Part shown: positions 2,755-25,574 of the stretch, piece by piece | Layout: the number at the start of each line of letters is the position of its first letter | Numbering within the stretch: the stretch's first letter is position 1 | Assembly: GCA_039809675.1 (NCBI GenBank) | Contig: JBDHVO010000001.1 | Coordinates: 1 to 28,348 of the forward strand | DNA from: Proteocatella sp. | GTDB taxonomy: Bacteria > Bacillota > Clostridia > Peptostreptococcales > Filifactoraceae | Reading direction: 5' to 3' | Length of the DNA: 28,348 bases | Program-made: the position numbers and the translations under genes | Notes under the pieces: generated by a model | The model's input: only the letters and a program-made list of their open reading frames with translations | What the model was told of the DNA's origin: nothing | The model's database searches: none

Positions 2755-2788
2755 GGGGCAGGTTCAAAAGAACCTGCCTCTTTGGTTT
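2755..2788 (+). terminator. Intrinsic terminator after nhaC
   Basis: GGGGCAGGTTC-AAAA-GAACCTGCCTC then TTTGGTTT (imperfect U-tract). Confidence 0.7.
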
Positions 2789-2800
2789 AGAAAGGATTTT

Positions 2801-3268
2801 ATGAAATATATAAATTACCTGGAGACCCCGATAGGGGCCATAGGTCTTGTCCAGGAGGAGGGCTACATTACAGAAATATTTTTTGGAAGGGAAGATAGGT
2901 TTAAAGACTATAGTCAGGAAGAAACCCCTCTTCTTATGAAAAGTAAAGGTCAGCTGGAGGAGTATTTTGCCGGCAAAAGAAAAGTCTTTGACCTGCCCCT
3001 GATGCCTGAGGGAACAGACTTTCAAAAGGCTGTCTGGAAGGCTCTCCTTGATATTCCCTATGGAGAAACAAGGTCCTATAAGGAGGTGGCAGAGGCGGTA
3101 GGAAATCCAAAAGCTGCCCGGGCGGTTGGTATGGCTAACAACAAGAACCCGATTTCTATAGTAATCCCATGACACAGGGTTATAGGAGCCAGCGGTAGGC
3201 TGGTGGGATTTGGTGGAGGTCTTCATGTCAAGGAGGCTCTCTTGGCCCTTGAAAAAGACAGTAAATAA
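2801..3268 (+). CDS. ogt: Methylated-DNA--protein-cysteine methyltransferase with in-frame UGA at the catalytic Cys (probable selenocysteine, codon 124); 155 aa if read through
   Basis: TDFQKAVWKALLDIPYGETRSY...ARAVGMANNKNPISIVIP-[TGA 3170-3172]-HRVIGASGRLVGFGGGLHVKEALLALE. The frame continues to TAA 3266-3268 with the conserved Ogt C-terminus. RBS AAGGA precedes ATG. Confidence 0.85.
3173..3215 (+). promoter_or_regulatory. SECIS-like hairpin in ogt
   Basis: G-CCAGC (3188-3193), loop GGTAG (3194-3198), GCTGG-T (3199-3204). Loop starts 21 nt after UGA and begins with GG. Confidence 0.55.
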
Positions 3269-3870: not shown

Positions 3871-5262
3871 TTAAATTCTGCCATTTTCTTCTGCTCTGTT
3901 TCGTCCGCCGTCCTTGGATCTATAGAGGGCCTCGTCTGCCATGGCAAGCAGGGTTTCCGGGCTATCATCCAGGCTAGGGATTAAATAAGCAACTCCAATA
4001 GAAACGGTTATTATTTTGAAGGCAGAGCCTGTATGTTCTATATTTAGAGCTTCAACCCTCTGAGCTATTGACTTGGCATAGTCATTAAGCTTTTGTGGCT
4101 CTGCATTTTGTATCAGGATGACAAATTCTTCGCCTCCGTATCGTGCTACTAAATCAGTAGACCTGTGAGCTGTATCTTGCAGGAGCTGACCTACTATTCT
4201 TAGAATGCTGTCGCCTGCTAAGTGGCCGTAAGTATCGTTATAATATTTGAAAAAGTCAATATCTATCATGAAAAGTCCGAGATATTTTTTGTTGCGCAAA
4301 GACGTTCTCCAAGCAGCCTGCAAAGTGGTGTCAAATTGTCTTCTGTTGGGGATTCCTGTAAGGTCGTCGGTAGTGGAAAGGAGCTTAAGCTCCCTGTTGC
4401 GTTCCTCAAGCTCATTGGTCCTAAGGGCGACTGCCTTCTCAAGGCCACTAACAGTCTGGGTTATACGCAAGGCCATCTTATTGAAGGACTGGGTTAGCTG
4501 GCCTATTTCATCCTGCCTGTCTTGGTTTGGTATAGTAATCAGCCTGCCGTTTGAAAGCTCTTCGGCAGCCTGGCATAAGATAGTCACGGGCTTTACCATA
4601 CGATTGGCAATATAGGTAGTAGTAAGAATGGTAGCAGATCTGTAGAGGAGGCAATGAGCATACCGGCTTCATCTACTATAAACACCTGACCTGAGGGGCC
4701 GATAGGGAGAGTCTTCAGGGTATTGCCCAACCATGACAAAAGGTGGTCAACTCCAAAAACGCCAATTAACTCGTTGTTGTGGTCATAAACCGCCAGACTG
4801 GATGTAATGGTAGGCTCGCGGAATACAAAGTGGCTGTAGACACTGCTGATGACTGGCTGTCCTGTTTCAACAGCCTTTGGTTGATTCGTTATTACGCACA
4901 ACCTGGAGCATGCCTTCGCTGGTACGACGGGCACCATAAAAGGACCCGTCAGGCAGGCCTACATAAGTCATAGCAATGTCTGGGTATAGCTTTATATGGT
5001 TGGTAAAGTAGGGCTCTCTATTGGCTTGAGAATCAAGGTCTAGTATTTTGTGCCTTATGTGGTCATAGTGCATTTGGTTTAATTGAAGGGCAGATTCCAG
5101 ACGCTGGGACAATTCGATGCCAACCTGTCTTTGCATTTGCTTGTGCAGCTCCATCAAGGCAAGCTGAGAGCTTGCAAGGCTTGCTTCTATTAATATAAAG
5201 CCGATGAAACCAATGGTTATAATCAGCTGGATTAAAGAAGGTATGGTAAACCACTTCTTCAT
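3871..5262 (-). pseudogene. Membrane Cache-HAMP-GGDEF diguanylate cyclase fragmented into three frames; HAMP-GGDEF part (3871-4599) is intact
   Basis: ORF 4867-5262 gives TM1 and Cache start. Frame 2 gives KAVETGQPVISSVYSHFV..IGVFGVD..GQVFIVDEAG (Cache core). Frame 3 gives TM2 end, HAMP (QDEIGQLTQSFNKM) and GGDEF (DLTGIPNRR, DIDFFKYYNDTYGHLAGD, RSTD I-site, RYGGEEF). Frame switches near 4878 and 4640. Confidence 0.8.
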
Positions 5263-5408
5263 ATGCCGGTCTCCTGTTTTTTCGTTTTATCCTCCATACC
5301 CCATAAAATGCGGATATTTTGCCTGGATTTTAAAAATAATATTATAGGTAACATACTCCAAAATCTAAGGGGATGTCAAGGGATAGAGGCAATAAAGTGG
5401 AGGCAATA

Positions 5409-5463
5409 TTTACCCACTTTTTACAGAAGGCTCTCCCTGCTGTTTACATTCAATGGGTACAAT
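5409..5463 (+). promoter_or_regulatory. Putative Pho box and -10 of the pst operon
   Basis: TTTACC-N5-TTTACA (5409-5425), another TTTACA at 5443, TACAAT at 5458-5463. Resembles Firmicute PhoP TT(A/T/C)ACA 11-bp-period repeats. Confidence 0.5.
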
Positions 5464-5498
5464 TATGTAAGAAAAGAATTTATCAGAAGGAGGCTGCA

Positions 5499-6359
5499 AT
5501 GACAAGGATGCTTGTAAGATATATGGTGTATGCTTTTATATTATTTGCTCTGACGGGCTGCGGAGGCATTTCGGGAACAAGGGAGGATGATATCACGGTG
5601 GTTTCTCGTGAAGACGGCAGTGGCACCAGGGGGGCCTTTACAGATTTGCTGGGCATAGAAAAAATAGGCCAGGGAACCAGGAAAGACCTTACTACAAAAG
5701 AAGCTATTGTTGTCAACAAGACAGCGGTTATGTTAAATACAGTGGCCGGGGACAAAAACGCCATAGGCTATGCCTCGCTTGGGTCCTTGGATGACCATGT
5801 GAAGGTCTTAAAAATCAATGGCTATGAGCCCTCTGATGAAAATATTGCCAAAGGCCTCTATCCTGTTGCCAGACCCTTTCTTATTGCTACCAGGGACGAC
5901 CTTTCCCCTCAGGCTCAGGATTTCATAGATTTTATTTTGTCCAAGGAAGGCCAGGAGCTTGCGGGACAAACCTATATTGCTGTAGATAATAAGGCTGCCC
6001 CCTATAAGGAGACAAATATTCAAGGCAAGGTTACGGTTGCAGGCTCGTCCTCTGTGGCTCCCTTGATGGAGAAGCTTAAGGAGGGCTACAACAGGGTTAA
6101 TCCGGGTCTTGTCATAGAAATCCAAATGAGTGATTCTACCTCTGGCATAAGCTCGGTAATGGAAGGGGCTATTGATATAGGTATGGTCAGCAGGGATTTG
6201 AGGGAGAGTGAGGCAAATGTCCTTAAGGGGACAGAGATCGCCATAGACGGGATTGCTATAATTATAAATCCCGAAAACAAGCTTGATAATCTTGAAATTG
6301 AAGGGGTAGGAAAAATATTTACAGGTGAGTACACGAACTGGAGGCAAATCCATGGATAA
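5499..6359 (+). CDS. pstS: Phosphate ABC transporter substrate-binding lipoprotein
   Basis: Lipobox ALTGC; SREDGSGTRGAF, AGSSSVAPLMEKL, SDSTSG, IAIDGIAII. Start at ATG 5499 after AGGAGG. Confidence 0.92.
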   Translation: MTRMLVRYMVYAFILFALTGCGGISGTREDDITVVSREDGSGTRGAFTDLLGIEKIGQGTRKDLTTKEAIVVNKTAVMLNTVAGDKNAIGYASLGSLDDHVKVLKINGYEPSDENIAKGLYPVARPFLIATRDDLSPQAQDFIDFILSKEGQELAGQTYIAVDNKAAPYKETNIQGKVTVAGSSSVAPLMEKLKEGYNRVNPGLVIEIQMSDSTSGISSVMEGAIDIGMVSRDLRESEANVLKGTEIAIDGIAIIINPENKLDNLEIEGVGKIFTGEYTNWRQIHG

Positions 6360-14212: not shown

Positions 14213-15577
14213 ATGCACGAATACGACTATCTGTGGAAGAGCGTTACCAAGGATTTTATCCTGGACGACCTTGATGAGGCTGTATGCGTTGTGGATAACG
14301 ATGGAACAGTAACAGTTTGGAACAAAAAATCCGAACAGATATATGATATGCCCAAGGATGAAATTCTGGGTAAAAATATGGACGATGTCCTTTATGGGAC
14401 GGTTGTAATGGATGTTCTGCGCTCAGGTGAAGACAAGCAGAATATTTACAAGGCAACCAGAACAGGCTGCAGCATCCTTGTAAAGGCCAAGGTTATCTAT
14501 AAAGACGGGGAAAAAATCGGAGTCATGTGCGTAGACAAGGACCTTAGTGAGATAGATGAGCTAAAAAACCAGGTTGACAGGCTTTATGACAGGATTTCCT
14601 ACTTGGAAAACAAGAACGTCAGTGAATACTCCTCCATAATGATAGGCAACAGTGAACAAATAGAAGACCTCCTGAGAAAGGTCAATAAGGTATCCAAATC
14701 TGATGCCAATATTTTTATAAACGGAGAAAGTGGAGTAGGCAAAAAATCCTTAGCCAGAGAAATTCATGACCTAAGCGGACGAGAGGGGATGTTTATTGAT
14801 GTGAACTGCGGAGCCATCCCAACCGGTATGTTTGATGAAGAGTTTTTCGGAGTCCAAAGCGCAAGCGAAAGCCGGCCCGGCCTTTTTGAGCTGGCTGAGG
14901 GAGGGACCCTCTATTTTGATGAGATAGCCGATATGTCTGTAAAAATGCAGTCAAAGCTCCTAAACGCCCTGCAGAAGCAGCAGATATTCAGGGTCGGAAG
15001 CAAGGAAATGATCCCCTTTCATTGCAGGATTATTTCTGCTACAACAAAGAATATCTATAACCTTGTTGAAAAGGGTGAATTTTTAGAGGACCTCTACTAC
15101 AGGCTGAATGTAATCTCCCTTGATGTTCCTCCCCTCAGAGACAGGGGGTCTGATATTACCCTTTTATCCAACCTCTTCTTAAAAGAGCTGTCTGAAAAAT
15201 ACTCCCTGAAAATCCCCGGCATATCTCCCAAGGTCAGGAATATCCTCCTTGAGTACGACTGGAAGGGCAATCTCAGGGAGCTGAAAAATATCCTTGAGCA
15301 CATGGTTGTAATGTCAGGCGGCAAAGAAATAAGCGAGGATATGCTGCCCTACTTTGTCAGGGACAGCGTGGCAAAATTTGCCAGATCCTACGCCCAGGTA
15401 AATGACCTGGCAAAAAATGTAGCTGAATACGAAAAGCATATAGTGGAGGAAGTCCTAAAAAACACTGACTGGAACAAGTCTCTGGCAGCCAGAAAGCTAA
15501 ATGTGCCAAGAACAACCCTTATGTATAAGATTAAGCAGTATGATCTTGAGGAAGAAAAGCTTAAGAAGAAAAAATAA
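14213..15577 (+). CDS. prdR: PAS-AAA+-Fis HTH (NtrC-like) regulator of proline reductase, lacking GAFTGA
   Basis: N-terminal PAS, GESGVGK, PGLFELAEGGTLYFDEI, DLYYRLNV, WKGNLRELKN, HTH AARKLNVPRTTLMYKIK; directly upstream of prdA. Confidence 0.8.
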   Translation: MHEYDYLWKSVTKDFILDDLDEAVCVVDNDGTVTVWNKKSEQIYDMPKDEILGKNMDDVLYGTVVMDVLRSGEDKQNIYKATRTGCSILVKAKVIYKDGEKIGVMCVDKDLSEIDELKNQVDRLYDRISYLENKNVSEYSSIMIGNSEQIEDLLRKVNKVSKSDANIFINGESGVGKKSLAREIHDLSGREGMFIDVNCGAIPTGMFDEEFFGVQSASESRPGLFELAEGGTLYFDEIADMSVKMQSKLLNALQKQQIFRVGSKEMIPFHCRIISATTKNIYNLVEKGEFLEDLYYRLNVISLDVPPLRDRGSDITLLSNLFLKELSEKYSLKIPGISPKVRNILLEYDWKGNLRELKNILEHMVVMSGGKEISEDMLPYFVRDSVAKFARSYAQVNDLAKNVAEYEKHIVEEVLKNTDWNKSLAARKLNVPRTTLMYKIKQYDLEEEKLKKKK

Positions 15578-15628
15578 GCTCTGGCTCTTATAAATATTTT
15601 TTATATAGAGGCAAAGAAATACTTAATA

Positions 15629-15661
15629 TGTCTGAAATTCGACAGTGGCGAAATTTGGACA
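15629..15661. promoter_or_regulatory. Tandem palindromic operator sites upstream of prdA
   Basis: TGTC-TGAAATTC-GACA (15629-15644) and TGGC-GAAATTTG-GACA (15646-15661). Confidence 0.55.
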
Positions 15662-15746
15662 TATTTTTTTGTTAAGAACAAAAAACCCAAAAAACCATAA
15701 GTTTACAGGGTTTTTGAACAGAGGTTTAAGCACATTCGCATAAAAT

Positions 15747-15792
15747 TGACAGTAATTGGACAGTTGATTAAGTTAATAACGTATCATATAAT
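15747..15792 (+). promoter_or_regulatory. prdA sigmaA promoter with adjacent operator
   Basis: TTGATT (15764-15769), 17 nt, TATAAT (15787-15792); TGAC-AGTAATTG-GACA at 15747-15762. Confidence 0.7.
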
Positions 15793-15890
15793 AGATATAG
15801 AAAAACATTATCAAAAGGCGTAGTTGCTTGACAAAGTGACAAGCAATTATCAAAGATTCAAATTATTTATAATTTTAAAAGGAGGAACAC

Positions 15891-17741
15891 ATGTCAATAA
15901 CATTAGAAACAGCTCAGGCCCATGCTAAGGACCCAGCAGTATTATGTTGTAGATTAGAGGCAGGGAATGTAATAGAAGTTACAAACCTTGAGGACCCTGC
16001 AATTTTCCCAGACCTTGTAGATTCTGGATTAATAGCAATTGATGAGAACACTCTTACAATTGAGGAGGTTCTTGGAGCAAAGCTAATCAAAACTTCTGAT
16101 TCACTTACTCCGCTTACAAGAGAGCTTCTTGAGGGAGTAAAAGAAACAGCAGCAGCTCCAGCAGCAGAGGTAGCAGTAGCACCGGTTGCAGCAGTAGCTC
16201 CAGTAGCTCCAGTAGCAGGAAACGCTGGCGTAGTAAGAATCCATATAGGAGAAGGAAGAGATATTAATCTTGAAATTCCCCTTGGCGTAGCAGCTCAAAT
16301 GGGAGTAGCTCCAGTAGCAGCTCAAGCAGAAGTAGCAGCAGTAGCAGCTCAAGCAGCAGCTCCAGCTGGACAAGAAACAGCAATTAGATCTCTAAAGAGA
16401 AGACATATAAAAATTGACAAGGTAGTATTTGGATCAGAGACAAAAATCGAAGGAACTACTCTTACAATAAGAGAGAACATCGAAACAGAAGCAGTAGCTT
16501 CTCAAGCACTTGTAACTGCAATGAAGCTTGAAATAATCACTCCTGACAAATACAATACTTACTCAGAAACAATCATGGACGTTCAGCCAATCGCAACAAA
16601 GGAAGACGGAGAGCTTGGAACAGGCGTTACAAGAGTAATTGACGGAGTAGTTGTTGTTCTAACAGGAACAGATGAAGGCGGAGTACAAATCGGAGAGTTT
16701 GGTTCTTCTGAGGGAGAGCTTGACAAAAACATCATGTGGGGAAGACCTGGAGCTCCAGACAAAGGCGATATCTTTATCAAAGCTGAAGTAACAATAAAAG
16801 AGCATACAAACATGGAAAGACCAGGACCTCTGGCAGCTCACAAGGCAATGGATTTCGTAACTGAAGAAATCAGACAAGCTCTTAAAAAAGCTGACGAGTC
16901 TCTTGTAGTTAAAGAAGATGAGTTTGTACAAAAGAGAAGACCAGGCAAGAAGAGAGTTCTTATAGTTAAAGAAATCATGGGTCAGGGTGCAATGCACGAC
17001 AACCTGATACTTCCTGTAGAGCCGGTTGGAATCCTTGGAGGACATCCAAACGTTGACCTTGGAAACCTTCCAGTAGTTCTTTCTCCGCTTGAGGTGCTAG
17101 ATGGAGGAATCCACGCCCTTACTTGTATAGGACCTGCTTCAAAGGAAAACTCAAGACACTACTTCAGAGAGCCGCTTGTACTTGCTGCAATGGCTGATGA
17201 TGAAATAGATCTTGTAGGAGTTGTGTTTGTTGGTTCTCCTCAGGCAAACTCTGAGAAATTCTATGTATCAAAAAGAGTAGGTATGATGGTTGAGGCTATG
17301 AATATAGACGGAGCAATCATAACTACTGAAGGATTCGGAAACAACCACATCGACTTTGCTTCTCACCATGAGGAAATCGGAAGCAGGGGAGTTGAAGTAG
17401 TTGGAGTAACTTACTCAGCTGTTCAGGGAGCCCTTGTTGTTGGTAACAAATACATGAAAAACATGGTAGACAACAACAAAGCATCTCAAGGAATTGAAAA
17501 CGAAATTCTTGCAAACAATACTCTATGCCCAGAGGATGCAATCAGAGCTCTTGTAATGCTTAAGACAGTAATGTCTGGAGAAACAGTTAAGGAAGCTGAA
17601 AGAAAATGGAATCCAGCTGTTAAGCAAAACAACATCGAAATGATTGAAAAAGCAACAGGCATGAAGATTGAGCTTGAAGAAAACGAGCAGTCTCTTCCAA
17701 AAAGCAAAAAGAGACTTGAAATATACGAGCCAGAGAATTAA
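15891..17741 (+). CDS. prdA: D-proline reductase proprotein (pyruvoyl-forming)
   Basis: EFGSSEG, GQGAMHDN, DGGIHALT-CIGPASKE cleavage site (Cys412, TGT 17124), EGFGNNHIDF; strong AGGAGG RBS. Confidence 0.96.
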   Translation: MSITLETAQAHAKDPAVLCCRLEAGNVIEVTNLEDPAIFPDLVDSGLIAIDENTLTIEEVLGAKLIKTSDSLTPLTRELLEGVKETAAAPAAEVAVAPVAAVAPVAPVAGNAGVVRIHIGEGRDINLEIPLGVAAQMGVAPVAAQAEVAAVAAQAAAPAGQETAIRSLKRRHIKIDKVVFGSETKIEGTTLTIRENIETEAVASQALVTAMKLEIITPDKYNTYSETIMDVQPIATKEDGELGTGVTRVIDGVVVVLTGTDEGGVQIGEFGSSEGELDKNIMWGRPGAPDKGDIFIKAEVTIKEHTNMERPGPLAAHKAMDFVTEEIRQALKKADESLVVKEDEFVQKRRPGKKRVLIVKEIMGQGAMHDNLILPVEPVGILGGHPNVDLGNLPVVLSPLEVLDGGIHALTCIGPASKENSRHYFREPLVLAAMADDEIDLVGVVFVGSPQANSEKFYVSKRVGMMVEAMNIDGAIITTEGFGNNHIDFASHHEEIGSRGVEVVGVTYSAVQGALVVGNKYMKNMVDNNKASQGIENEILANNTLCPEDAIRALVMLKTVMSGETVKEAERKWNPAVKQNNIEMIEKATGMKIELEENEQSLPKSKKRLEIYEPEN

Positions 17742-17764
17742 GAGGCAATAGGTTAGGAGATTAA

Positions 17765-18034
17765 ATGGACAAGTTAAGATACACCTCAACAGAAAACTAT
17801 GTAGAGGGAGTAATAGTAGAAATTAAGAGTGGCCTTGTGGCAATTGACATGAAAGGCAGGATGGGACAATGGAGAGTGCCGATGAGAATGCTAATATCGG
17901 ATTTTCCACCAGAAATTGGCCAGGAGGTTGGTTTCCTGCTCAGCTACCCTGAAGTTCTCGGTCCTGAAATCAACGAAAAATATGCCCAGGTATTAGAAAG
18001 TAAAAGAAAAAAGATTAGTGAAATGGAGGAATAA
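17765..18034 (+). CDS. Small conserved prd-operon protein (CBO2463/CBO2479-like)
   Basis: 89 aa between prdA and prdB with RBS AGGAGA; YVEGVIVEI..IDMKGRMG..PMRMLISD pattern. Confidence 0.75.
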   Translation: MDKLRYTSTENYVEGVIVEIKSGLVAIDMKGRMGQWRVPMRMLISDFPPEIGQEVGFLLSYPEVLGPEINEKYAQVLESKRKKISEMEE

Positions 18035-18036
18035 AA

Positions 18037-18762
18037 ATGAGTCTTACAGCAGTAAAAGGACTACAGTCAGAAATATTCGTGCCTGTAACACCGCCACCTG
18101 TATGGACACCTGTTTCAAAGCCGCTAAGCGAAGCAGTTGTAGCTCTTGCATCAGCAGCAGGAATCCATCTTAAAACAGATAAAAGATTTAACCTTGCAGG
18201 TGACTTTACATTCAGATTAATTCCAGGAGATGCAACAGCAAAAGACCTTATGGTATCTCACGGTGGATATGACAACGCTGACGCGAACAAGGACATAAAC
18301 TGTATGTTCCCAATCGACAGAATGCATGAGCTTGCAGCAGAAGGCTTTATAAAAGCATTTGCACCAGTAAACTTTGGATTCATGGGAGGCGGAGGAGACC
18401 AGGACAAATTCGCCAACGAAACAGGACCGGAAATCGCAAGACAGCTTAAAGAAGAAGGCGTAGACTATGTACTTCTTACAGCAGGCTGAGGTACCTGCCA
18501 CCGCTCTGCCGTGCTTGTGCAGAGAGCAATCGAGTCTGCAGGAATACCAACAGTAATCATTGCAGCACTACCTCCGGTAGTTAGACAAACAGGAACTCCA
18601 AGAGCAGTTGCCCCGCTTGTACCAATGGGAGCAAATGCAGGAGCACCAAACGATCCAGTAATGCAAACAGCAATCATCAAGGCTTCTCTAAACGCCATGA
18701 TGGAAATGACAAGTGCTGGACAAATAGTACCACTGCCATTCGAATATATAGCAAAAGTTTAA
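18037..18762 (+). CDS. prdB: D-proline reductase selenoprotein subunit, Sec151 (TGA 18487-18489), 241 aa
   Basis: MVSHGGYD, NCMFPIDR, VLLTAG-U-GTCHRSAVLVQRAIE. Joins track ORFs 18037-18489 and 18511-18762 in one frame. Confidence 0.96.
18490..18527 (+). promoter_or_regulatory. SECIS-like hairpin of prdB
   Basis: CTCTGC (18504-18509), loop CGTGCTTGT, GCAGAG (18519-18524); loop starts 20 nt after UGA. Confidence 0.65.
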
Positions 18763-18767
18763 TAAAT

Positions 18768-18799
18768 TTTCAGGGGCTGCAAGACTTGCAGCCCCGAAA
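18768..18799 (+). other. Strong intercistronic stem-loop between prdB and prdD, no U-tract
   Basis: GGGGCTGCAA-GAC-TTGCAGCCCC flanked by TTTC / GAAA. Confidence 0.7.
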
Positions 18800-18822
18800 T
18801 GAATATGGAGCTGAGCCTAGTT

Positions 18823-19578
18823 ATGGAAACTATAGATTTACGAAGGTTAGTCATCAGAGCTTTTCACATAGAAAAGATTGAGTTTGGAGACAAATTCAAA
18901 TATGATAAACGTGTACTTACGATTGATAAAGAATACACAAAGTATATACAGGAAAATCCTCTTATTGAAAACGTTACAATCAGCGTAATAAAACCAGGGG
19001 ATCATGACAGAGAAATTAATACTATAATGGACATTATCCCCATATCCACCAAGGTGCTGGGTAAGCTGGGAGAAGGAATCACCTACACCATGACAGGCGC
19101 TTATGTAATGCTGACAGGCTGTGATGCAGACGGAAGGCAGATGCATGAATTTGGTTCTTCTGAGGGCAACCTTAAAGACCAGATGGTGCTTGGGAAAGCT
19201 GGCACCCCTGGGGAAAACGATATCATAATTCATATAGATGTACTTATAAAAGGCTCAGAGGTGTATGACAGGAGGCTGCCAAACGCCTGCTTCAAGGCCT
19301 GTGATGAATTCATCCAGCAAATACGTGAGGATTTAAAGCTCCAAGAGCCAAAGCATGCCACAGAGGTTCACGAGTTTTATGATAGAAAAAGACCAGGAGC
19401 CAAAAAGGTTGCCCTTGTGAAGCAGGTCGCCGGGCAAGGTGCCATGTATGACCACCTTCTTCTTCCAAAGGAGCCATCAGGCTTTACTGGAGGAATATCA
19501 ATAATAGATGCAGGCAATATGCCCATAGTGCTATCTCCCAACGAATTTAGGGATGGAGCCTTAAGGGCTTTGGATTAG
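18823..19578 (+). CDS. prdD: Proline reductase cluster protein PrdD
   Basis: LRRLVIRAFH, EFGSSEG, GQGAMYD, DGALRAL; homologous to the central part of PrdA. Start ATG 18823 preferred over 18799, which lies inside the stem-loop. Confidence 0.88.
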   Translation: METIDLRRLVIRAFHIEKIEFGDKFKYDKRVLTIDKEYTKYIQENPLIENVTISVIKPGDHDREINTIMDIIPISTKVLGKLGEGITYTMTGAYVMLTGCDADGRQMHEFGSSEGNLKDQMVLGKAGTPGENDIIIHIDVLIKGSEVYDRRLPNACFKACDEFIQQIREDLKLQEPKHATEVHEFYDRKRPGAKKVALVKQVAGQGAMYDHLLLPKEPSGFTGGISIIDAGNMPIVLSPNEFRDGALRALD

Positions 19579-19586
19579 GAGGAAAA

Positions 19587-20054
19587 ATGGGAGTAGGACC
19601 ATCGACAAAAGAAACTTCATTACACCATTTTAGAGATCCGCTGGTAGACGTTTTAAGTAATGACAATGACCTTGAGCTGGTAGGTATAGTGGTCGTAGGC
19701 ACGCCTCAGGACAACATAGAAAAAGAAAGGGTAGGCACAAGGGCTGCTCAGCTTCTTGAGGCTATGAGAGTGGACGGCTGCATACTTTCATGTGATGGAT
19801 GGGGGAATTCGCATGTAGACTATGCCAACACCTTTGAGGAGATAGGAAAAAGAAATATTCCTGTCGTAGGAGTTACCTTTAACGGAAAGCAAGCAAAATT
19901 TGTTGTAACTAACAGATACATGGACACGATAGTTGACATAAATAAATCAAAAGAAGGCATTGAAACTGAAGTTGTAGGCGAGAATACAACCGACGAACTA
20001 GATGCAAAAAAAGCAGCGGCACTTTTAAAGCTAAAGATGAGAAAGAGAGTATAA
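19587..20054 (+). CDS. prdE: Proline reductase cluster protein PrdE
   Basis: MGVGPSTKETSLHHFRDP, DGWGNSHVDY; homologous to the PrdA C-terminal subunit; RBS AGGAGG. Confidence 0.88.
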   Translation: MGVGPSTKETSLHHFRDPLVDVLSNDNDLELVGIVVVGTPQDNIEKERVGTRAAQLLEAMRVDGCILSCDGWGNSHVDYANTFEEIGKRNIPVVGVTFNGKQAKFVVTNRYMDTIVDINKSKEGIETEVVGENTTDELDAKKAAALLKLKMRKRV

Positions 20055-20056
20055 CG

Positions 20057-21061
20057 ATGATTTTTTCAAAAGGAATACACGCAATTGACTCACATACAGC
20101 GGGAGAAGCAACAAGAATAGTAATAGGTGGAATCCCTAATGTTCCTGGCAAGACAATGCCTGAGAAAAAAGCATACCTTGAGCAGAATATGGACCACATA
20201 AGAACAGCTCTTATGCTAGAGCCAAGAGGGCACAACGATATGTTTGGATCCTTCATACTTGCTCCTACAGTAGATGAGGCTGATTTTGGAATTATATTTA
20301 TGGACGGCGGCGGCTACCTTAACATGTGCGGTCACGGAACAATCGGAGCAGTAACCTGTGCTGTTGAGACCGGTATGGTTGAGATGAAAGAGCCTGTTAC
20401 AAAGGTTGTTCTTGAAGCACCGGCAGGAATTGTAAGAGCTGAAGCTGCAGTTGAAAACGGAAAGGTACAAAGCGTATCCTTCAAAAACGTACCTGCCTTC
20501 CTTTACAAAAGAGACCAGGTGGTAGAGCTTGACGGAAAGAAAATAAAGTTTGATATCTCCTTCGGCGGAAGCTTCTTTGCCATCGTTCATGCTGATGAGC
20601 TAGGAATGAAAATAGAGCCAAACAACGCAACAGCCCTAACTGATGTTGCCCTAAGACTTAGAGATAAAATCAACCAGGAGATCGAAATTCAGCATCCAGA
20701 GCTTGCTCATATAAAAACAGTAGACCTTGTTGAAATCTATGATGCTCCTACTCACCCGGAAGCAACCTACAAAAACGTTGTAATCTTCGGTCAGGGTCAG
20801 GTAGACAGATCTCCATGCGGAACAGGAACATCTGCAAAGATGGCAGCCCTTCATGCAAAGGGAGAGCTAAAGGAAGGACAGGAATTTGTATACGAAAGTA
20901 TCCTTGGAACTCTTTTCTATGGTCATGTTGCAGAAACAACAAAGGTTGGCGACTTTGATGCAGTAATCCCTGTAGTAAAAGGATCTGCATACATCACAGG
21001 CTTTAACCACTTTGTAATTGATGAAACAGACCCTCTTAAGCATGGATTTGTTCTAAAATAA
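20057..21061 (+). CDS. prdF: Proline racemase
   Basis: DSHTAGEATR, MCGH (Cys91), DRSPCGTGT (Cys254). Confidence 0.95.
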   Translation: MIFSKGIHAIDSHTAGEATRIVIGGIPNVPGKTMPEKKAYLEQNMDHIRTALMLEPRGHNDMFGSFILAPTVDEADFGIIFMDGGGYLNMCGHGTIGAVTCAVETGMVEMKEPVTKVVLEAPAGIVRAEAAVENGKVQSVSFKNVPAFLYKRDQVVELDGKKIKFDISFGGSFFAIVHADELGMKIEPNNATALTDVALRLRDKINQEIEIQHPELAHIKTVDLVEIYDAPTHPEATYKNVVIFGQGQVDRSPCGTGTSAKMAALHAKGELKEGQEFVYESILGTLFYGHVAETTKVGDFDAVIPVVKGSAYITGFNHFVIDETDPLKHGFVLK

Positions 21062-21074
21062 GCAAAAACACTAG

Positions 21075-21101
21075 CGGCTGCTGTCCTTGAAGCAGCAGCC
21101 G
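21075..21101 (+). terminator. Stem-loop after prdF, weak or absent U-tract
   Basis: CGGCTGCTG-N9-CAGCAGCCG perfect 9-bp stem followed by AATCCTAATTATTT. Confidence 0.5.
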
Positions 21102-21162
21102 AATCCTAATTATTTACAGCAAAAAAAATCTTCGGAATCTTAATTAAAAGTTTAATTTTTTA

Positions 21163-21191
21163 TTGAAACAATTCTTTGTCTGTGATATAAT
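21163..21191 (+). promoter_or_regulatory. sigmaA promoter of the permease gene
   Basis: TTGAAA, 17 nt, TGaTATAAT (extended -10). Confidence 0.75.
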
Positions 21192-21235
21192 AAACACACA
21201 ATTTAATTGTAAATTAAATACATAGGAGGAAACCC

Positions 21236-22111
21236 ATGAACGTAGCATCGATATTATTAATTGGTATTGGAATACTATGCGCATTTTACGTGGTAGTATT
21301 AGTAAAAGACTTTATGGCAACAAAGGCAGCTGGAGCTCTTGAACCAGGAACAAGCTATGCAACATCAGGAATTATAGGAACAGTAGTTAACTTTTTTGAC
21401 ACGCTTGGAATCGGCTCCTTTGCCCCATCAACAGCTCTATTTAGAGCCTTCAAGCAGGTAGACGACAGACTTATCCCGGGAACCCTAAACGTTTCTTGTA
21501 CTCTGCCGGTTTGCTACCAGGCTTACCTATTTATGAGTGAGGTAGAGGTTGAGCCCTTCACACTTGCATCAATGCTTATTGCATCAGCAGTAGGAGCTTA
21601 CTTCGGAGCAGGTATAGTATCAAAGCTTCCAACCAAGGTTGTACAAAAGGTTATGGCTCTTGCTCTTGCAGCAACAGGACTAATAGTTATTCTTCAGCTT
21701 GTAGGTCTATTCCCAAGCGGTGGAGATGCAACAGGTCTTACAGGTATCAAGCTTATCATAGGTATAGTAATGAACTGTATCCTTGGAGCCCTTATGACAG
21801 CCGGAATCGGTCTTTACGCTCCATGTATGGCCCTTGTATATATGCTTGGAATGAGCCCGCTTGTAGCATTCCCAATAATGATGGGATCTTGTGCTTACCT
21901 AATGCCGGTAGCTTCAGTAAGGTTTATCAAGGAAGGCGGATTCAACAGAAAAGCTTCAATGGCAGTTGCTCTTGGAGGACTTGTGGGAGTTGCTATAGCC
22001 TTCTACCTGGTTAAGAGCTTACCGCTTACAATCCTAAAATGGCTGGTAGTAGGTGTAATGTTCTACACTGCGATATCTCTATTCTCAGCTTCAAAAAAAG
22101 CAGCAGCTTAA
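21236..22111 (+). CDS. TauE/SafE (TSUP) family membrane transporter
   Basis: About 8 hydrophobic segments with internally repeated FDTLGIGSFA / LMTAGIGLYA motifs; RBS AGGAGG. Confidence 0.75.
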   Translation: MNVASILLIGIGILCAFYVVVLVKDFMATKAAGALEPGTSYATSGIIGTVVNFFDTLGIGSFAPSTALFRAFKQVDDRLIPGTLNVSCTLPVCYQAYLFMSEVEVEPFTLASMLIASAVGAYFGAGIVSKLPTKVVQKVMALALAATGLIVILQLVGLFPSGGDATGLTGIKLIIGIVMNCILGALMTAGIGLYAPCMALVYMLGMSPLVAFPIMMGSCAYLMPVASVRFIKEGGFNRKASMAVALGGLVGVAIAFYLVKSLPLTILKWLVVGVMFYTAISLFSASKKAAA

Positions 22112-22159
22112 TAGTTAGAAACAGACTACACACTGTTAATAATACACAAACTATGGATT

Positions 22160-22190
22160 GGGATTGGCGCAAGCTGGTCTCTTTCCATTT
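22160..22190 (+). terminator. Probable terminator after the permease
   Basis: GGGATTGGC-GCAA-GCTGGTCTC (GNRA loop, several G-U pairs) then TTTCCATTT. Confidence 0.5.
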
Positions 22191-22223
22191 ACAAAGGAAA
22201 TTTAGCAAGAATTCAAAAAATGC

Positions 22224-22252
22224 TGGACAAAGTATAAAAAGTTCAGTATAAT
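22224..22252 (+). promoter_or_regulatory. sigmaA promoter of proS
   Basis: TGGACA, 17 nt, TATAAT. Confidence 0.75.
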
Positions 22253-22261
22253 CAACAGAAA

Positions 22262-22460
22262 GCTATGAAAAAGAATCATATTTGCAAAGGTCCATAGAGA
22301 ATGGGAGGAGCTGGAAACCCTGATTGGAGCAAAGTATGTCCTGCTTTGGAGCTGGAGTAATCCCGTTTTGGCCCGTTACAGCCCCAAGAGATATTCCCTT
22401 AGGAATAATTAGAGTGGTACCGCGATCCTTCGCCTCTATATGAGGAGGGGGATTTTTTAA
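22262..22460 (+). promoter_or_regulatory. T-box riboswitch, Pro specifier (CCU)
   Basis: AGAGA bulge, GCTGGAAA distal loop, stem CATATTTGC/GCAAAGTATG, CCT at 22340-22342, T-box AATTAGAGTGGTACCGCG (22407-22424), terminator hairpin with U-tract ending near 22460. Confidence 0.9.
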
Positions 22461-22509
22461 TAGCCAAAAATACAGGCTTAGGGCCTGAAATAAAAATTAT
22501 GGAGGAATT

Positions 22510-23955
22510 ATGTCAAAGAAAGCACAGCAGTTTGTAAAGGAAATAACACCAATGGAGGAGGATTTTGCCCAGTGGTATACTGATATAATCACAAAGGCAG
22601 ACCTTGTAGACTACTCACCAGTAAAAGGCTTTATGGTAATCAAGCCCTATGGCTACGCCCTGTGGGAGGCAATCCAGGGCTTTGCAGACAAGAGATTTAA
22701 GGATACAGGTCACAAAAACTGTTACTTCCCTCTCTTAATCCCTGAAAGTCTTCTTATGAAGGAGGCAGAGCACGTTGAGGGCTTCGCTCCAGAAGTAGCC
22801 TGGGTTACCCACGCTGGCAAGGAAAGACTTGAAGAAAGACTGGTAATCAGGCCTACATCAGAAACTATAATATGCGAAATGTACAGAAAATGGCTTAGAT
22901 CCTATAGGGACCTGCCATACCTATACAACCAGTGGTGTTCAGTTGTAAGATGGGAAAAGGCAACAAGGCCCTTCCTGAGAACATCAGAATTCTTGTGGCA
23001 GGAAGGTCATACCCTGCATGAAACCTTTGAGGAGGCTGAAAGAGAAACCCTCCAGATGCTGGACATCTATGAGGAGGTTGCCCAGGACCTTATGGCTATG
23101 CCGGTTGTAAAGGGGCAAAAATCTGTTAGAGAGCGTTTTGCAGGAGCTCAGGACACCTATACAATAGAGGCCCTTATGCATGACGGCAAGGCCCTTCAGT
23201 CCGGGACAAGCCACTTCCTGGCCCAGCACTTTACAAAGGCCTTTGAAATCCAGTTCCAGGACAGAAACGGCGGTCTTAGCTACCCTTACCATACATCGTG
23301 GGGAATATCGACAAGACTTATTGGTGGCCTTATAATGGTTCATTCCGATAATAGAGGGCTTGTGATACCACCTAAGATGGCACCTACCCAGGTAAGGATA
23401 ATTCCTATCCAGCAGAACAAGGAAGGGGTAATGGACAAGGCCAACGAGATTTATGACGAGCTGAAAAAAACCTTAAGAGTGGATATGGATGATACAACAG
23501 AAAAATCTCCGGGCTACAAGTTCAATGATGCTGAAATGCTTGGAATCCCAGTAAGAATAGAGGTAGGACCAAGAGACCTTGAAAATGGTCAGGTAACCCT
23601 TGTAAGAAGAGATACCCTTGAAAAGGCCCAGTATGAGATTGAAGGCCTGAGAGAAAAAATAGAAGGTCTTATGGCCGAAATCCAACAAAACCTGTTTAAC
23701 AAGGCCTTAGAGCGTCAGGAGGAGAGAACGTCAACAGCCTACAATATGGATGACTTCAAAAAAGCTCTTGTTGAAAATCCGGGCTTTATCAGGGCAATGC
23801 ACTGCGAGGATGAAGAGTGTGAGGCAACAATCAAGGAAGAAACAGCGGCAACTATCAGGTGCTTCCCGTTTGCAGACACAGAAAAAATTGCAGACACCTG
23901 TGTATGCTGCGGCAAAAAGGCAGATAGACTGGCCTACTTTGCAAAAGCTTATTAG
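22510..23955 (+). CDS. proS: Proline--tRNA ligase (archaeal/eukaryote-like type, no INS editing domain)
   Basis: EGFAPEVAWVT, RPTSET, TRPFLRTSEFLWQEGHT, QSGTSH, SWGISTR, C-terminal FAKAY. Confidence 0.96.
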   Translation: MSKKAQQFVKEITPMEEDFAQWYTDIITKADLVDYSPVKGFMVIKPYGYALWEAIQGFADKRFKDTGHKNCYFPLLIPESLLMKEAEHVEGFAPEVAWVTHAGKERLEERLVIRPTSETIICEMYRKWLRSYRDLPYLYNQWCSVVRWEKATRPFLRTSEFLWQEGHTLHETFEEAERETLQMLDIYEEVAQDLMAMPVVKGQKSVRERFAGAQDTYTIEALMHDGKALQSGTSHFLAQHFTKAFEIQFQDRNGGLSYPYHTSWGISTRLIGGLIMVHSDNRGLVIPPKMAPTQVRIIPIQQNKEGVMDKANEIYDELKKTLRVDMDDTTEKSPGYKFNDAEMLGIPVRIEVGPRDLENGQVTLVRRDTLEKAQYEIEGLREKIEGLMAEIQQNLFNKALERQEERTSTAYNMDDFKKALVENPGFIRAMHCEDEECEATIKEETAATIRCFPFADTEKIADTCVCCGKKADRLAYFAKAY

Positions 23956-24251
23956 GAGTTAGGTAAAAGGTAAAAGGTAAAAGGTAAAGTAGGGGCCTGG
24001 CGGCCGGAGTTGGTTAGTGGTTAGCTGACAGGTCTTAGGTTAAAGGCTTTTGGTTAAATGCTAGATGGCACTTGGGCAGCCAAAGTCATTAGTTAAAAAA
24101 GGCTATAAAATCCGTAAAAGCGAGAACCTGTCTGAGCGACAGGCAGTTCACAGCTTTCGGATTTTATAGCCTTTCTAGCTTTAACCTTTTTCCTTTTACC
24201 TAACCACTAACCAACTAACCACTAACCAACTAACCACTAACCAACTAACTT
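23956..24251. repeat. Intergenic nested inverted-repeat / tandem-repeat element, probably also a bidirectional terminator
   Basis: GGTAAAA x3 plus GGTAAAG (23962-23989); CTAACCACTAACCAA x3 (24200-24244) complementary to 24008-24024; 17-bp perfect IR at 24098-24114 / 24158-24174. Confidence 0.85.
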
Positions 24252-25574
24252 CTAGTCCTGGTCAACAGTTTTTGAAACCTTTAGGGTTCTGTAAAGCGGA
24301 TGGCCTATGGTTCTCATAACATGGTCAGTCTGGTGCATAACCTTTAGTCCCATTTTTGGAGCTGAGCCCATTACAGTATTTGAACAATCTGAACAGTTAC
24401 CTATAACTATATATTCGCACTTGTCCTTTTTAAACTGTAAGCTGTTTTGTACCTGGCCAGGACACTCTCCCGGGCGCTCGCACTTAAGCGGTCCGCCTGG
24501 CTTTGCAGCCACAGCCTGCTTACATTTTGCAACAGAAACAACCTTTGAATTCATCTTTGCTGCAATATCACGCATACGGTTTTCGTCACCGCCGCACGCA
24601 CATATAAGGATTCCCATAGGGGCTCCGTGCAGGTCAGGGAATTCCATTGTAGCAATGATTCCACCTGTTGTTTTTGTAATAGGAGCTTCAAGAGTAGTAG
24701 GCTTGCCTGTGAAAGGTCCTCCCATAATAAGCTCTCCGATTGGCCTGTCAATTAGTCCACCAGAAGCTTCAATAAGGTCTGCTACGCTTGTTCCTATTGG
24801 CACGTCCTTAAAGATTTTGCCTTTTTGAGCATCCTCAACCATTCCAACAACCGTAAGATCCTTGCTGATGCATGGTCTTCTTTCGTCGATTGCCTCAGTT
24901 ATTCTGATAAGAGTCTCTGTATTAAGGACAACTGCGTTGGCAGCAGATGGCAGCTCAGCAACTCCAAGCTCTATTCCGCCAAGGCACTCCCTTACAACTG
25001 CTCTTTCCTCACCCATTGGGTAGATATCAGGCATAAGTCTGATTGACATAGCAGGCTCGGCTTTGATAGCTTCTTTTAGGATTTTTACAGCATTTTCATT
25101 TTTCTTTTTGATGGCAAATATAGCCTTGGCAGCTCCTGTAATATCCATAGCGTATTTAACGCCCTTGATAAGCTTGGCAGTTTGAGTCTCTGTCTGCATA
25201 ATATTATGCTTTAGGCCAGGCTCGCACTCTGCGTCATTAATAAGCACATAACCGCCTTCGATTTTTGTAGAAAGCTTAATAGCGGTAGGGAATCCTGCTC
25301 CTCCCATACCAACAAGTCCTGCTGCCTTTATCATCTCCAGAGGAGTGTCCTCCTTCAGAGGAATAAAAGCATCCTTTTGCTCTTCATCAGGCTTTATAAT
25401 TATACGGTCATCTTTTACTTCAGTAACAAGGCCGTAAACACTTGAATAAATATTGGCACCAAGTCCAGCAGGCTCAGCAACCAAGGTTCCTTTTTCTACC
25501 CTTGCACCAGCCTCAACAACAGGCTTGCATGGTGCACCCACGTGCTGGCTAAGCAGCAACTGAATATCTCTCAT
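24252..25574 (-). CDS. prdC: Proline reductase-associated electron transfer protein (RnfC-like)
   Basis: QHVGAPCKPVV, AGLVGMGGAGFPT, INDAECEP, YPMGEE, GGPFTG, C-terminal CACGG, CERPGECPG and GNCSDC; RBS GAGGAG. Confidence 0.9.
   Translation of the reverse strand: MRDIQLLLSQHVGAPCKPVVEAGARVEKGTLVAEPAGLGANIYSSVYGLVTEVKDDRIIIKPDEEQKDAFIPLKEDTPLEMIKAAGLVGMGGAGFPTAIKLSTKIEGGYVLINDAECEPGLKHNIMQTETQTAKLIKGVKYAMDITGAAKAIFAIKKKNENAVKILKEAIKAEPAMSIRLMPDIYPMGEERAVVRECLGGIELGVAELPSAANAVVLNTETLIRITEAIDERRPCISKDLTVVGMVEDAQKGKIFKDVPIGTSVADLIEASGGLIDRPIGELIMGGPFTGKPTTLEAPITKTTGGIIATMEFPDLHGAPMGILICACGGDENRMRDIAAKMNSKVVSVAKCKQAVAAKPGGPLKCERPGECPGQVQNSLQFKKDKCEYIVIGNCSDCSNTVMGSAPKMGLKVMHQTDHVMRTIGHPLYRTLKVSKTVDQD

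Follow-up and report, generated by a model that had tools for sequence, protein, structure and literature searches.

The window, a stretch of 28,348 nt from Proteocatella sp., contains an ogt gene whose codon for the catalytic cysteine is an in-frame TGA. Judging from the sequence, this UGA is very probably decoded as selenocysteine (Sec), as a sequence-only reading of the window had proposed when it called the product a selenoprotein DNA-repair enzyme. This is the best supported reading because the UGA lies exactly at the Cys position, the frame and the residues around it are intact, the hairpin that follows fits bacterial SECIS elements (bSECIS), the genome contains selB, selD, prdB and grdB, and parallel TGA-type ogt genes occur elsewhere.

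The gene is a further member of a predicted family catalogued since 2005, not the discovery of a new one. A Sec-type methylated-DNA-protein-cysteine methyltransferase (Sec-MGMT), CHY0809, was described in that year (PMC1287953), others appeared in GOS and Olavius-symbiont metagenome data (PMC2398784, PMC1976440), and reviews from 2022 and 2026 include the family (PMC9312934, PMC13188914), so that the sequence-only reading had correctly placed it in lists of selenoproteins. It knew of no biochemical study, and we found none on a natural member in the literature searched, but an engineered human AGT with Sec at the acceptor position (C145U) has been examined: it is active, protects E. coli delta-ada delta-ogt from MNNG, and stays active together with N137A, a change that kills the Cys form (PMC4150793).

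The ogt gene and its in-frame TGA

The gene and the signals preceding it are as follows:

2755–2780, plus strand: terminator-like hairpin of the upstream antiporter gene
2791–2796, plus strand: AAAGGA, likely ribosome-binding site, 4 nt 5′ of the ATG (from the letters)
2801–3268, plus strand: ogt/MGMT coding sequence of 155 codons including the in-frame TGA, with a TAA stop at 3266–3268 (translation, Pfam, synteny)
3170–3172, plus strand: TGA in place of the catalytic Cys codon (IP-U-HRV), codon 124, proposed to specify Sec (translation, alignment, contigs of three runs)

The TGA occupies the codon of the methyl-accepting Cys of the PCHRV motif (CCA TGA CAC AGG GTT, 3167–3181), as first noticed, and translation through it confirms that 31 sense codons follow before the TAA, giving a 155-aa protein of the same length as its orthologues. 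Both MGMT Pfam domains score above their curated cut-offs (PF01035, 2e-35, 120.9 bits with a cut-off of 27; PF02870, 4e-10, 40.5 bits with a cut-off of 21). The TGA is the sole Cys site of the protein, which has no further Cys. The translation and alignments retain the active-site residues IPYGE (Tyr114), RAVG (Arg128), NKNP (Asn137) and IPUHRV, and the codons 3′ of the TGA encode the His-Arg of the motif as well as a Lys at +20 and a Glu at +27, equivalent to Lys165 and Glu172 of human AGT; the position of human Tyr158 is occupied by a Phe. The database entry of the gene is a 123-aa product ending at the TGA (P0002), the truncated call that had been expected of annotation pipelines, and we predict that it should instead read as a 155-aa selenoprotein. 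Given the terminator-like hairpin at 2755–2780, ogt is probably transcribed either from a start of its own or by read-through.

Four sequencing runs, all from one activated-sludge study, contain the ogt stretch, and Logan contigs from three of them (three samples of that study) span positions 3170–3172 with zero differences over 214–845 nt. These three run assemblies are independent, although the MAG may itself come from one of the samples, and their word depth is only 2–4, which places minor alleles at 3170–3172 beyond judgement. The TGA is thus a true base, very unlikely to have arisen from faulty base calling or assembly; the sequencing error first entertained as a possible refutation is contradicted by three independently assembled runs with the same TGA.

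Two further genes near ogt have unusual structures. A gene for a dCache-HAMP-GGDEF sensor diguanylate cyclase (3871–5262, minus strand) is spread over three frames by two frameshifts and represents a pseudogene or else a defect of the assembly. The open reading frame at 5373–6359 (plus strand) resembles phosphate-binding proteins and matches two PBP families in separate halves, PBP_like_2 being matched only over its first 125 of 267 positions before the next gene starts; its architecture is odd or truncated.

The SECIS-like hairpin and Sec machinery genes of the host

Two features downstream of the TGA are relevant here:

3188–3204, plus strand: SECIS-like hairpin GCCAGC/GGUAG/GCUGGU with a 6-bp stem (folding, published bSECIS criteria)
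3197–3199, plus strand: AGG (Arg, +9), where the Cys orthologues have AAA/AAG for Lys (codon alignment)

The hairpin is made up of GCCAGC (3188–3193), the loop GGTAG (3194–3198) and GCTGGT (3199–3204), which confirms the position originally given for the GGTAG loop. Its stem begins 15 nt and its loop 21 nt past the UGA, with a folding energy of -9.6 kcal/mol. Published bSECIS criteria (PMC13188914, Fig. 2) comprise a loop of 3–9 nt with a G within the first two positions, a stem of 4–16 bp, a UGA-to-loop distance of 16–37 nt and a minimum free energy of at most -7.5 kcal/mol; with its 5-nt loop beginning GG, 6 bp, 21 nt and -9.6 kcal/mol, the ogt element agrees with all four. Our strict hairpin test is our own coding of these criteria for a contiguous stem only and differs from bSECISearch. 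The energy of the 61-nt fold as a whole was ordinary (z = -0.42), so we relied on a local, position-restricted hairpin test with Cys-type controls; the hairpin signal resides in the local stem-loop plus its position, not in the overall energy of the 61-nt fold. Searches of the window with Rfam, at gathering thresholds, and ARAGORN gave zero hits, which is uninformative on SECIS presence either way.

None of the 45 distinct Clostridia-side Cys-type ogt genes used as controls (46 loci scored) reached -7.5 kcal/mol, the best having -6.3, while this value was reached by six of 47 GC-rich Cys-type controls from Nitrospirota and Desulfobacterota, three of the six at the same distance. Among 260 single-TGA frames of the own genome, 11 passed the strict test, including those of selD (-10.0), ogt (-9.6) and two grdB genes (-7.5); the remaining passers look like terminators behind true stops. 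The loop begins 20 nt past the UGA in both selD and prdB and 21 nt in ogt, so that the three elements share one geometry, and the likeness to the prdB SECIS element that had been noticed from the letters was borne out. One further small frame in the same genome (contig C33, minus strand, reverse-complement index 6099), reading ..SFCPUYHLL.., has a 9-bp hairpin, GGCGGCAGG/GGUU/CUUGCUGCC, 27 nt past its TGA and could be a small redox selenoprotein, or else a stop followed by a terminator.

The prdB gene belongs to a complete proline reductase cluster at 14213–25574 of the window:

14213–15577: sigma-54-type activator
15891–17741: prdA, followed by a small open reading frame, prdB (18037–18762), prdD and prdE
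18037–18762, plus strand: prdB (proline reductase selenoprotein B), with its Sec TGA at 18487–18489 and its hairpin at 18504–18524 (stem CTCTGC, 18504–18509)
20057–21061: proline racemase

Beyond the proline racemase there are a TauE-like gene, proS and an RnfC-like gene on the minus strand.

Completeness of the MAG is 62%; it consists of 195 contigs and includes six assembled tRNAs. It contains selB, above cut-off, a selD that carries its own UGA (Sec-type), and at least two grdB genes, in which the family match stops at a UGA followed by GTCTRCGA. A search for selA and tRNA-Sec found neither in this 62%-complete MAG with its six tRNAs, where the selB contig begins inside selB; among genus relatives, selA was found in four of five and tRNA-Sec in three of three. 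The Sec machinery that had been deduced from prdB was therefore recovered as regards selB and selD, together with the selenoprotein genes prdB and grdB, and not as regards selA and tRNA-Sec.

Own-lineage orthologues and TGA-type ogt genes elsewhere

In the window, ogt lies in the order decarboxylase fragment, Na+/H+ antiporter, ogt, Rrf2 regulator. Its closest proteins in a search of 5.8 billion clusters have 66–71% identity and are all full-length Cys forms, and those orthologues whose DNA was fetched occupy the same neighborhood, which identifies these Cys-type genes as true orthologues. The TGA stands alone: TGT or TGC is present in every syntenic orthologue (ca. 70% identity), and Cys was found in six of six genus relatives and in all except two of the matches listed from 400 genomes of the order. 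No second TGA genome of the own lineage was found among the 5.8 billion protein clusters, 40 relatives and the 400 genomes of the order; a scan of genome and metagenome contigs for the IPUHRVIG codon pattern, which possibly omitted records near the own genome, likewise gave no own-lineage TGA, and the sequencing-run search for such relatives led to one study only. As the TGA is alone in its lineage, purifying selection on the codons past it cannot be demonstrated for ogt. Conservation of UGA and hairpin in orthologues is nevertheless not strictly required, since CHY0809 was likewise unique when described.

The codon comparison with the orthologues showed three differences, each toward the TGA-type genes found elsewhere. 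The first is TGY to TGA. The second is AGU/AAA to AGC/AGG, which turns a U-A pair of the stem into C-G, the last G of the AGG at 3197–3199 pairing with the C of the Ser codon AGC in place of the U-A of orthologue L098, and removes the Lys at +9; a change of UCC to GCC adds a G-U pair, and together these changes take the hairpin from 5 bp and -5.5 kcal/mol to 6 bp and -9.6 kcal/mol. The third is TAY to TTT, which places Phe at the human AGT Tyr158 position:

3209–3211, plus strand: TTT (Phe, +13), human AGT Tyr158 position; Tyr in every listed Cys form of the own clade

The Cys gene of L098 already bears, in the corresponding position, a hairpin of 5 bp (CCAGU/GGCAA/ACUGG, -5.5 kcal/mol), so that the ogt hairpin is only partly derived. 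Cys orthologues devoid of a conserved hairpin had been named at the outset as evidence against Sec; the orthologues are indeed all of the Cys type, yet one of them has this weaker hairpin. The comparison with relatives that had been called for therefore gave a divided answer, with TGT/TGC in all close orthologues and TGA-type ogt genes with a covarying hairpin in other lineages, and the case for Sec in the own lineage is an indirect one.

In the protein tree (96 rows), the TGA label required about nine changes, at least four of them forced by well-supported branches. The ogt protein is sister (92/84) to a Cys-only clade, within a starred clade, and its own branch is short (0.15). A grouping of the ogt protein with the TGA clade of Tissierellaceae was not rejected by an AU test (p = 0.197); we rate a shared origin with that Sec clade as unlikely on account of synteny and of the higher identity to the Cys orthologues on either side of the TGA. 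The Cys-to-Sec event thus apparently took place within the own lineage, at the ancestral locus, which we conclude mainly from synteny, the protein tree being insufficient. The 39-nt hairpin stretch has 85% identity to that of L057, from the Tissierellaceae clade, vs. 67–72% to the orthologues, and is too short to separate convergence from a short gene conversion. Overall, ogt looks like a young, lineage-specific conversion.

In species-level genomes, the I-P-U-H-R-V-I-G codon-pattern scan identified 13 genuine ogt genes of the TGA type (Gudongella, Tissierellaceae, Tissierella, other Bacillota, Nitrospirota and Desulfocapsa) and metagenome contigs supplied ca. 17 more; two others came from another genus of the own order and eleven from Nitrospirota relatives. 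After removal of duplicates, the comparative set contained 38 TGA-type (ca. 37 besides our own) and 92 Cys-type DNA sequences. The strict hairpin was present in 23 of the 38, its loop always 18–24 nt past the UGA. In the 11 genes that share the register of ogt (ogt and ten others), 93.5% of the cells are paired and five of the seven pairs have changed on both sides, and pairing falls to 14–47% when the partner is slid by 1–3 columns; because this set was picked for having the hairpin, it speaks for covariation and not for prevalence. Conservation of UGA and hairpin with selection downstream was found in the g40 species pair, with synonymous changes past the UGA, and in the Nitrospirota clade, but not for our own ogt. 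Four of five other TGA-type host genomes tested contain selB above cut-off. TGA-type ogt is therefore real and recurrent.

The residues at +13 and +9 also differ between the two types. Phe occupies +13 in 33 of the 38 TGA-type genes and Tyr in 70 of the 92 Cys-type genes (own ogt and loci L037–L164), and Lys occupies +9 in four of 38 vs. 50 of 92, counts that include kin and are not independent; in our ogt these two residues are Phe and Arg, against Tyr and Lys in the Cys orthologues. The comparison of independent Sec-Phe pairs is underpowered, with four starred pairs, two or three in the same direction, usually none opposite and a median p of 0.25. Phe is also found in 10 of 18 Nitrospirota Cys forms, and is thus not everywhere a consequence of Sec. 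Tyr158 lines the alkyl pocket beside Cys145 (PMC10814553, PMC9515978), which makes a link between this position and the acceptor atom plausible, although inferred. These residue patterns suggest that Phe at +13 without Lys at +9 is a supportive signature, not proof.

Several loci depart from the general pattern. L058 (5618–6070, minus strand), from the Christensenellaceae MAG G404, has TGA at the catalytic Cys, Tyr at +13 and a hairpin of -4.3 kcal/mol, and no selB over cut-off was found in the G404 genome; it is probably a plain nonsense allele or stems from an incomplete genome, and its traits indicate that not every TGA-type ogt encodes a selenoprotein. At the SECIS position of the Cys-type gene L047 (G061:C1:1025024–1026082) there is a 7-bp hairpin (UGCCAAU/GGAAA/AUUGGUA) whose arms are identical to those of the Gudongella TGA forms; it is a relic of a Sec ancestor or else a latent pre-SECIS. 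The Cys-type genes L106 (G412) and L107 (G427) have 76% and 74% identity to a TGA-type query, the top values among the Nitrospirota relatives searched and above the 61–67% over full length of other TGA forms with the same query. Their hairpins are decayed (-5.3 and -3.1, respectively), +13 is Tyr in L106 and Phe in L107, and from these sequences both look like Sec-to-Cys reversions.

Proposed decoding of the UGA and comparison with known systems

If the UGA is decoded as Sec, SelB with Sec-tRNA(Sec) would bind the hairpin 15–34 nt downstream of UGA-124 and deliver Sec to the ribosome against release factor 2, after which the remaining 31 codons would be translated. The product would be a full-length O6-alkylguanine-DNA alkyltransferase with selenocysteine as the alkyl acceptor, whose selenolate would take the alkyl group from O6-alkylguanine in a single irreversible step, like the thiolate of ordinary Ogt. 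With selenium or SelB limiting, a truncated, inactive product of 123 aa would result. The Cys-to-Sec change may have been eased by a prior weak hairpin in the conserved coding stretch G-x-x-G-K-L-V-G, strengthened later. The TGA, the hairpin, the machinery genes and the parallels in other genomes are observed; Sec insertion itself, the activity of the product and any benefit of Sec are inferred.

A recent TGY-to-TGA nonsense mutation might instead have killed ogt, leaving an inactive 123-aa product and a downstream frame that has not yet decayed. We give this a small chance, to which the isolation of the TGA among syntenic orthologues and genus relatives that all have TGT/TGC contributes, as do the weaker hairpin in a Cys orthologue, given which a hairpin is not in itself a sign of selection for Sec, and the dead appearance of L058 with its Tyr at +13, weak hairpin and no selB over cut-off. 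The genome, moreover, carries damaged genes, the sensor gene with two frameshifts lying ca. 600 nt downstream of the ogt stop. Yet this codon represents only about one in 65 of the possible nonsense changes in ogt (a rough estimate, not computed), and frameshifts are commoner lesions than nonsense hits. Also against a dead gene are the derived Lys-to-Arg change, with its U-A to C-G pair, and the derived Tyr-to-Phe change, both toward TGA-type genes, a hairpin stronger than in all 45 Clostridia-side Cys controls, and the short branch. Even a young UGA followed by such a hairpin would probably be read partly as Sec with SelB present.

Decoding of the UGA outside the Sec system, through a code reassigned to Trp or Gly or through near-cognate read-through inserting Trp or Cys, is very improbable. 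UGA-C is a leaky stop context, and the genes of the window strongly avoid TGA as a stop, ending in TAA (19), TAG (5) and TGA (1 of 25). One gene does terminate in TGA, however, and the in-frame TGAs seen among the window genes are confined to two places, the Sec site of prdB and the catalytic Cys of ogt, which indicates that the genetic code is not reassigned. Trp or Gly at the alkyl acceptor would moreover be expected to give a dead enzyme, by analogy with the inactive S145 variant of human AGT (PMC4150793). A sequence error hiding a true TGT or TGC has virtually no chance of being right, since the fragmentation of the MAG and the low word depth, which would allow it, are outweighed by the same base in independent contigs from three samples.

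With decoding as Sec as the preferred reading, ogt represents a further origin, apparently separate from the others, of a suicide repair protein of the Sec type, in which one selenocysteine would be spent per lesion. A wider proposal, which we hold as possible but rather doubtful, is that Ogt is a family with repeated Cys-to-Sec conversion, of which the window offers a young example, and that Sec-Ogt is adaptive and not a neutral oddity. The G-x-x-G-K-L-V-G stretch would then provide a latent hairpin at the right distance, its Gly codon giving the G's of the loop, and each conversion would be fixed by codon changes that strengthen the stem, often with a Tyr158-to-Phe change retuning the alkyl pocket; Sec-Ogt might be a faster or pH-independent alkyl acceptor. 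The comparative pattern of a fixed hairpin distance, Phe at the Tyr158 position and loss of Lys at +9 could guide the study of why Sec occurs in a non-redox, single-turnover enzyme, and the same traits help to tell UGA alleles that are probably functional from dead ones like L058.

Among the known systems, CHY0809 (ABB14497.1) from Carboxydothermus hydrogenoformans shares with ogt the PF01035 domain, a UGA for the catalytic Cys, a stem-loop past the UGA and a host encoding Sec machinery, of which selB and selD were recovered for ogt; its family was predicted by Cys/Sec homology only (PMC1287953, PMC2398784, PMC1976440, PMC13188914), and ogt differs in belonging to another lineage, where Cys apparently changed to Sec in a separate event at the ancestral locus. 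The TGA-type genes of Tissierellaceae and Gudongella MAGs (L055, L057, L056, L063 and L066) share the motif IP-U-HRVIGA-x-G-x-LVGFGGG, Phe at +13, a hairpin in the same register (GCCAG../..CUGGU) and, where checked (G405), selB. Their protein identity to ogt is 55–68% in the stretches compared, whereas ogt groups with a Cys-only clade, the gene neighborhood of which it shares. The own-lineage Cys forms (P0003–P0020; L098, L100–L102) agree with ogt in locus, length, catalytic residues and 66–71% identity, and differ in TGT/TGC, Lys at +9, Tyr at +13 and a hairpin that is absent or weaker (5 bp, -5.5 kcal/mol). Finally, the engineered human AGT C145U is likewise an AGT with Sec as the alkyl acceptor but, unlike ogt, it is artificial, encoded by UAG, delivered by EF-Tu without a SECIS, and retains Tyr158.
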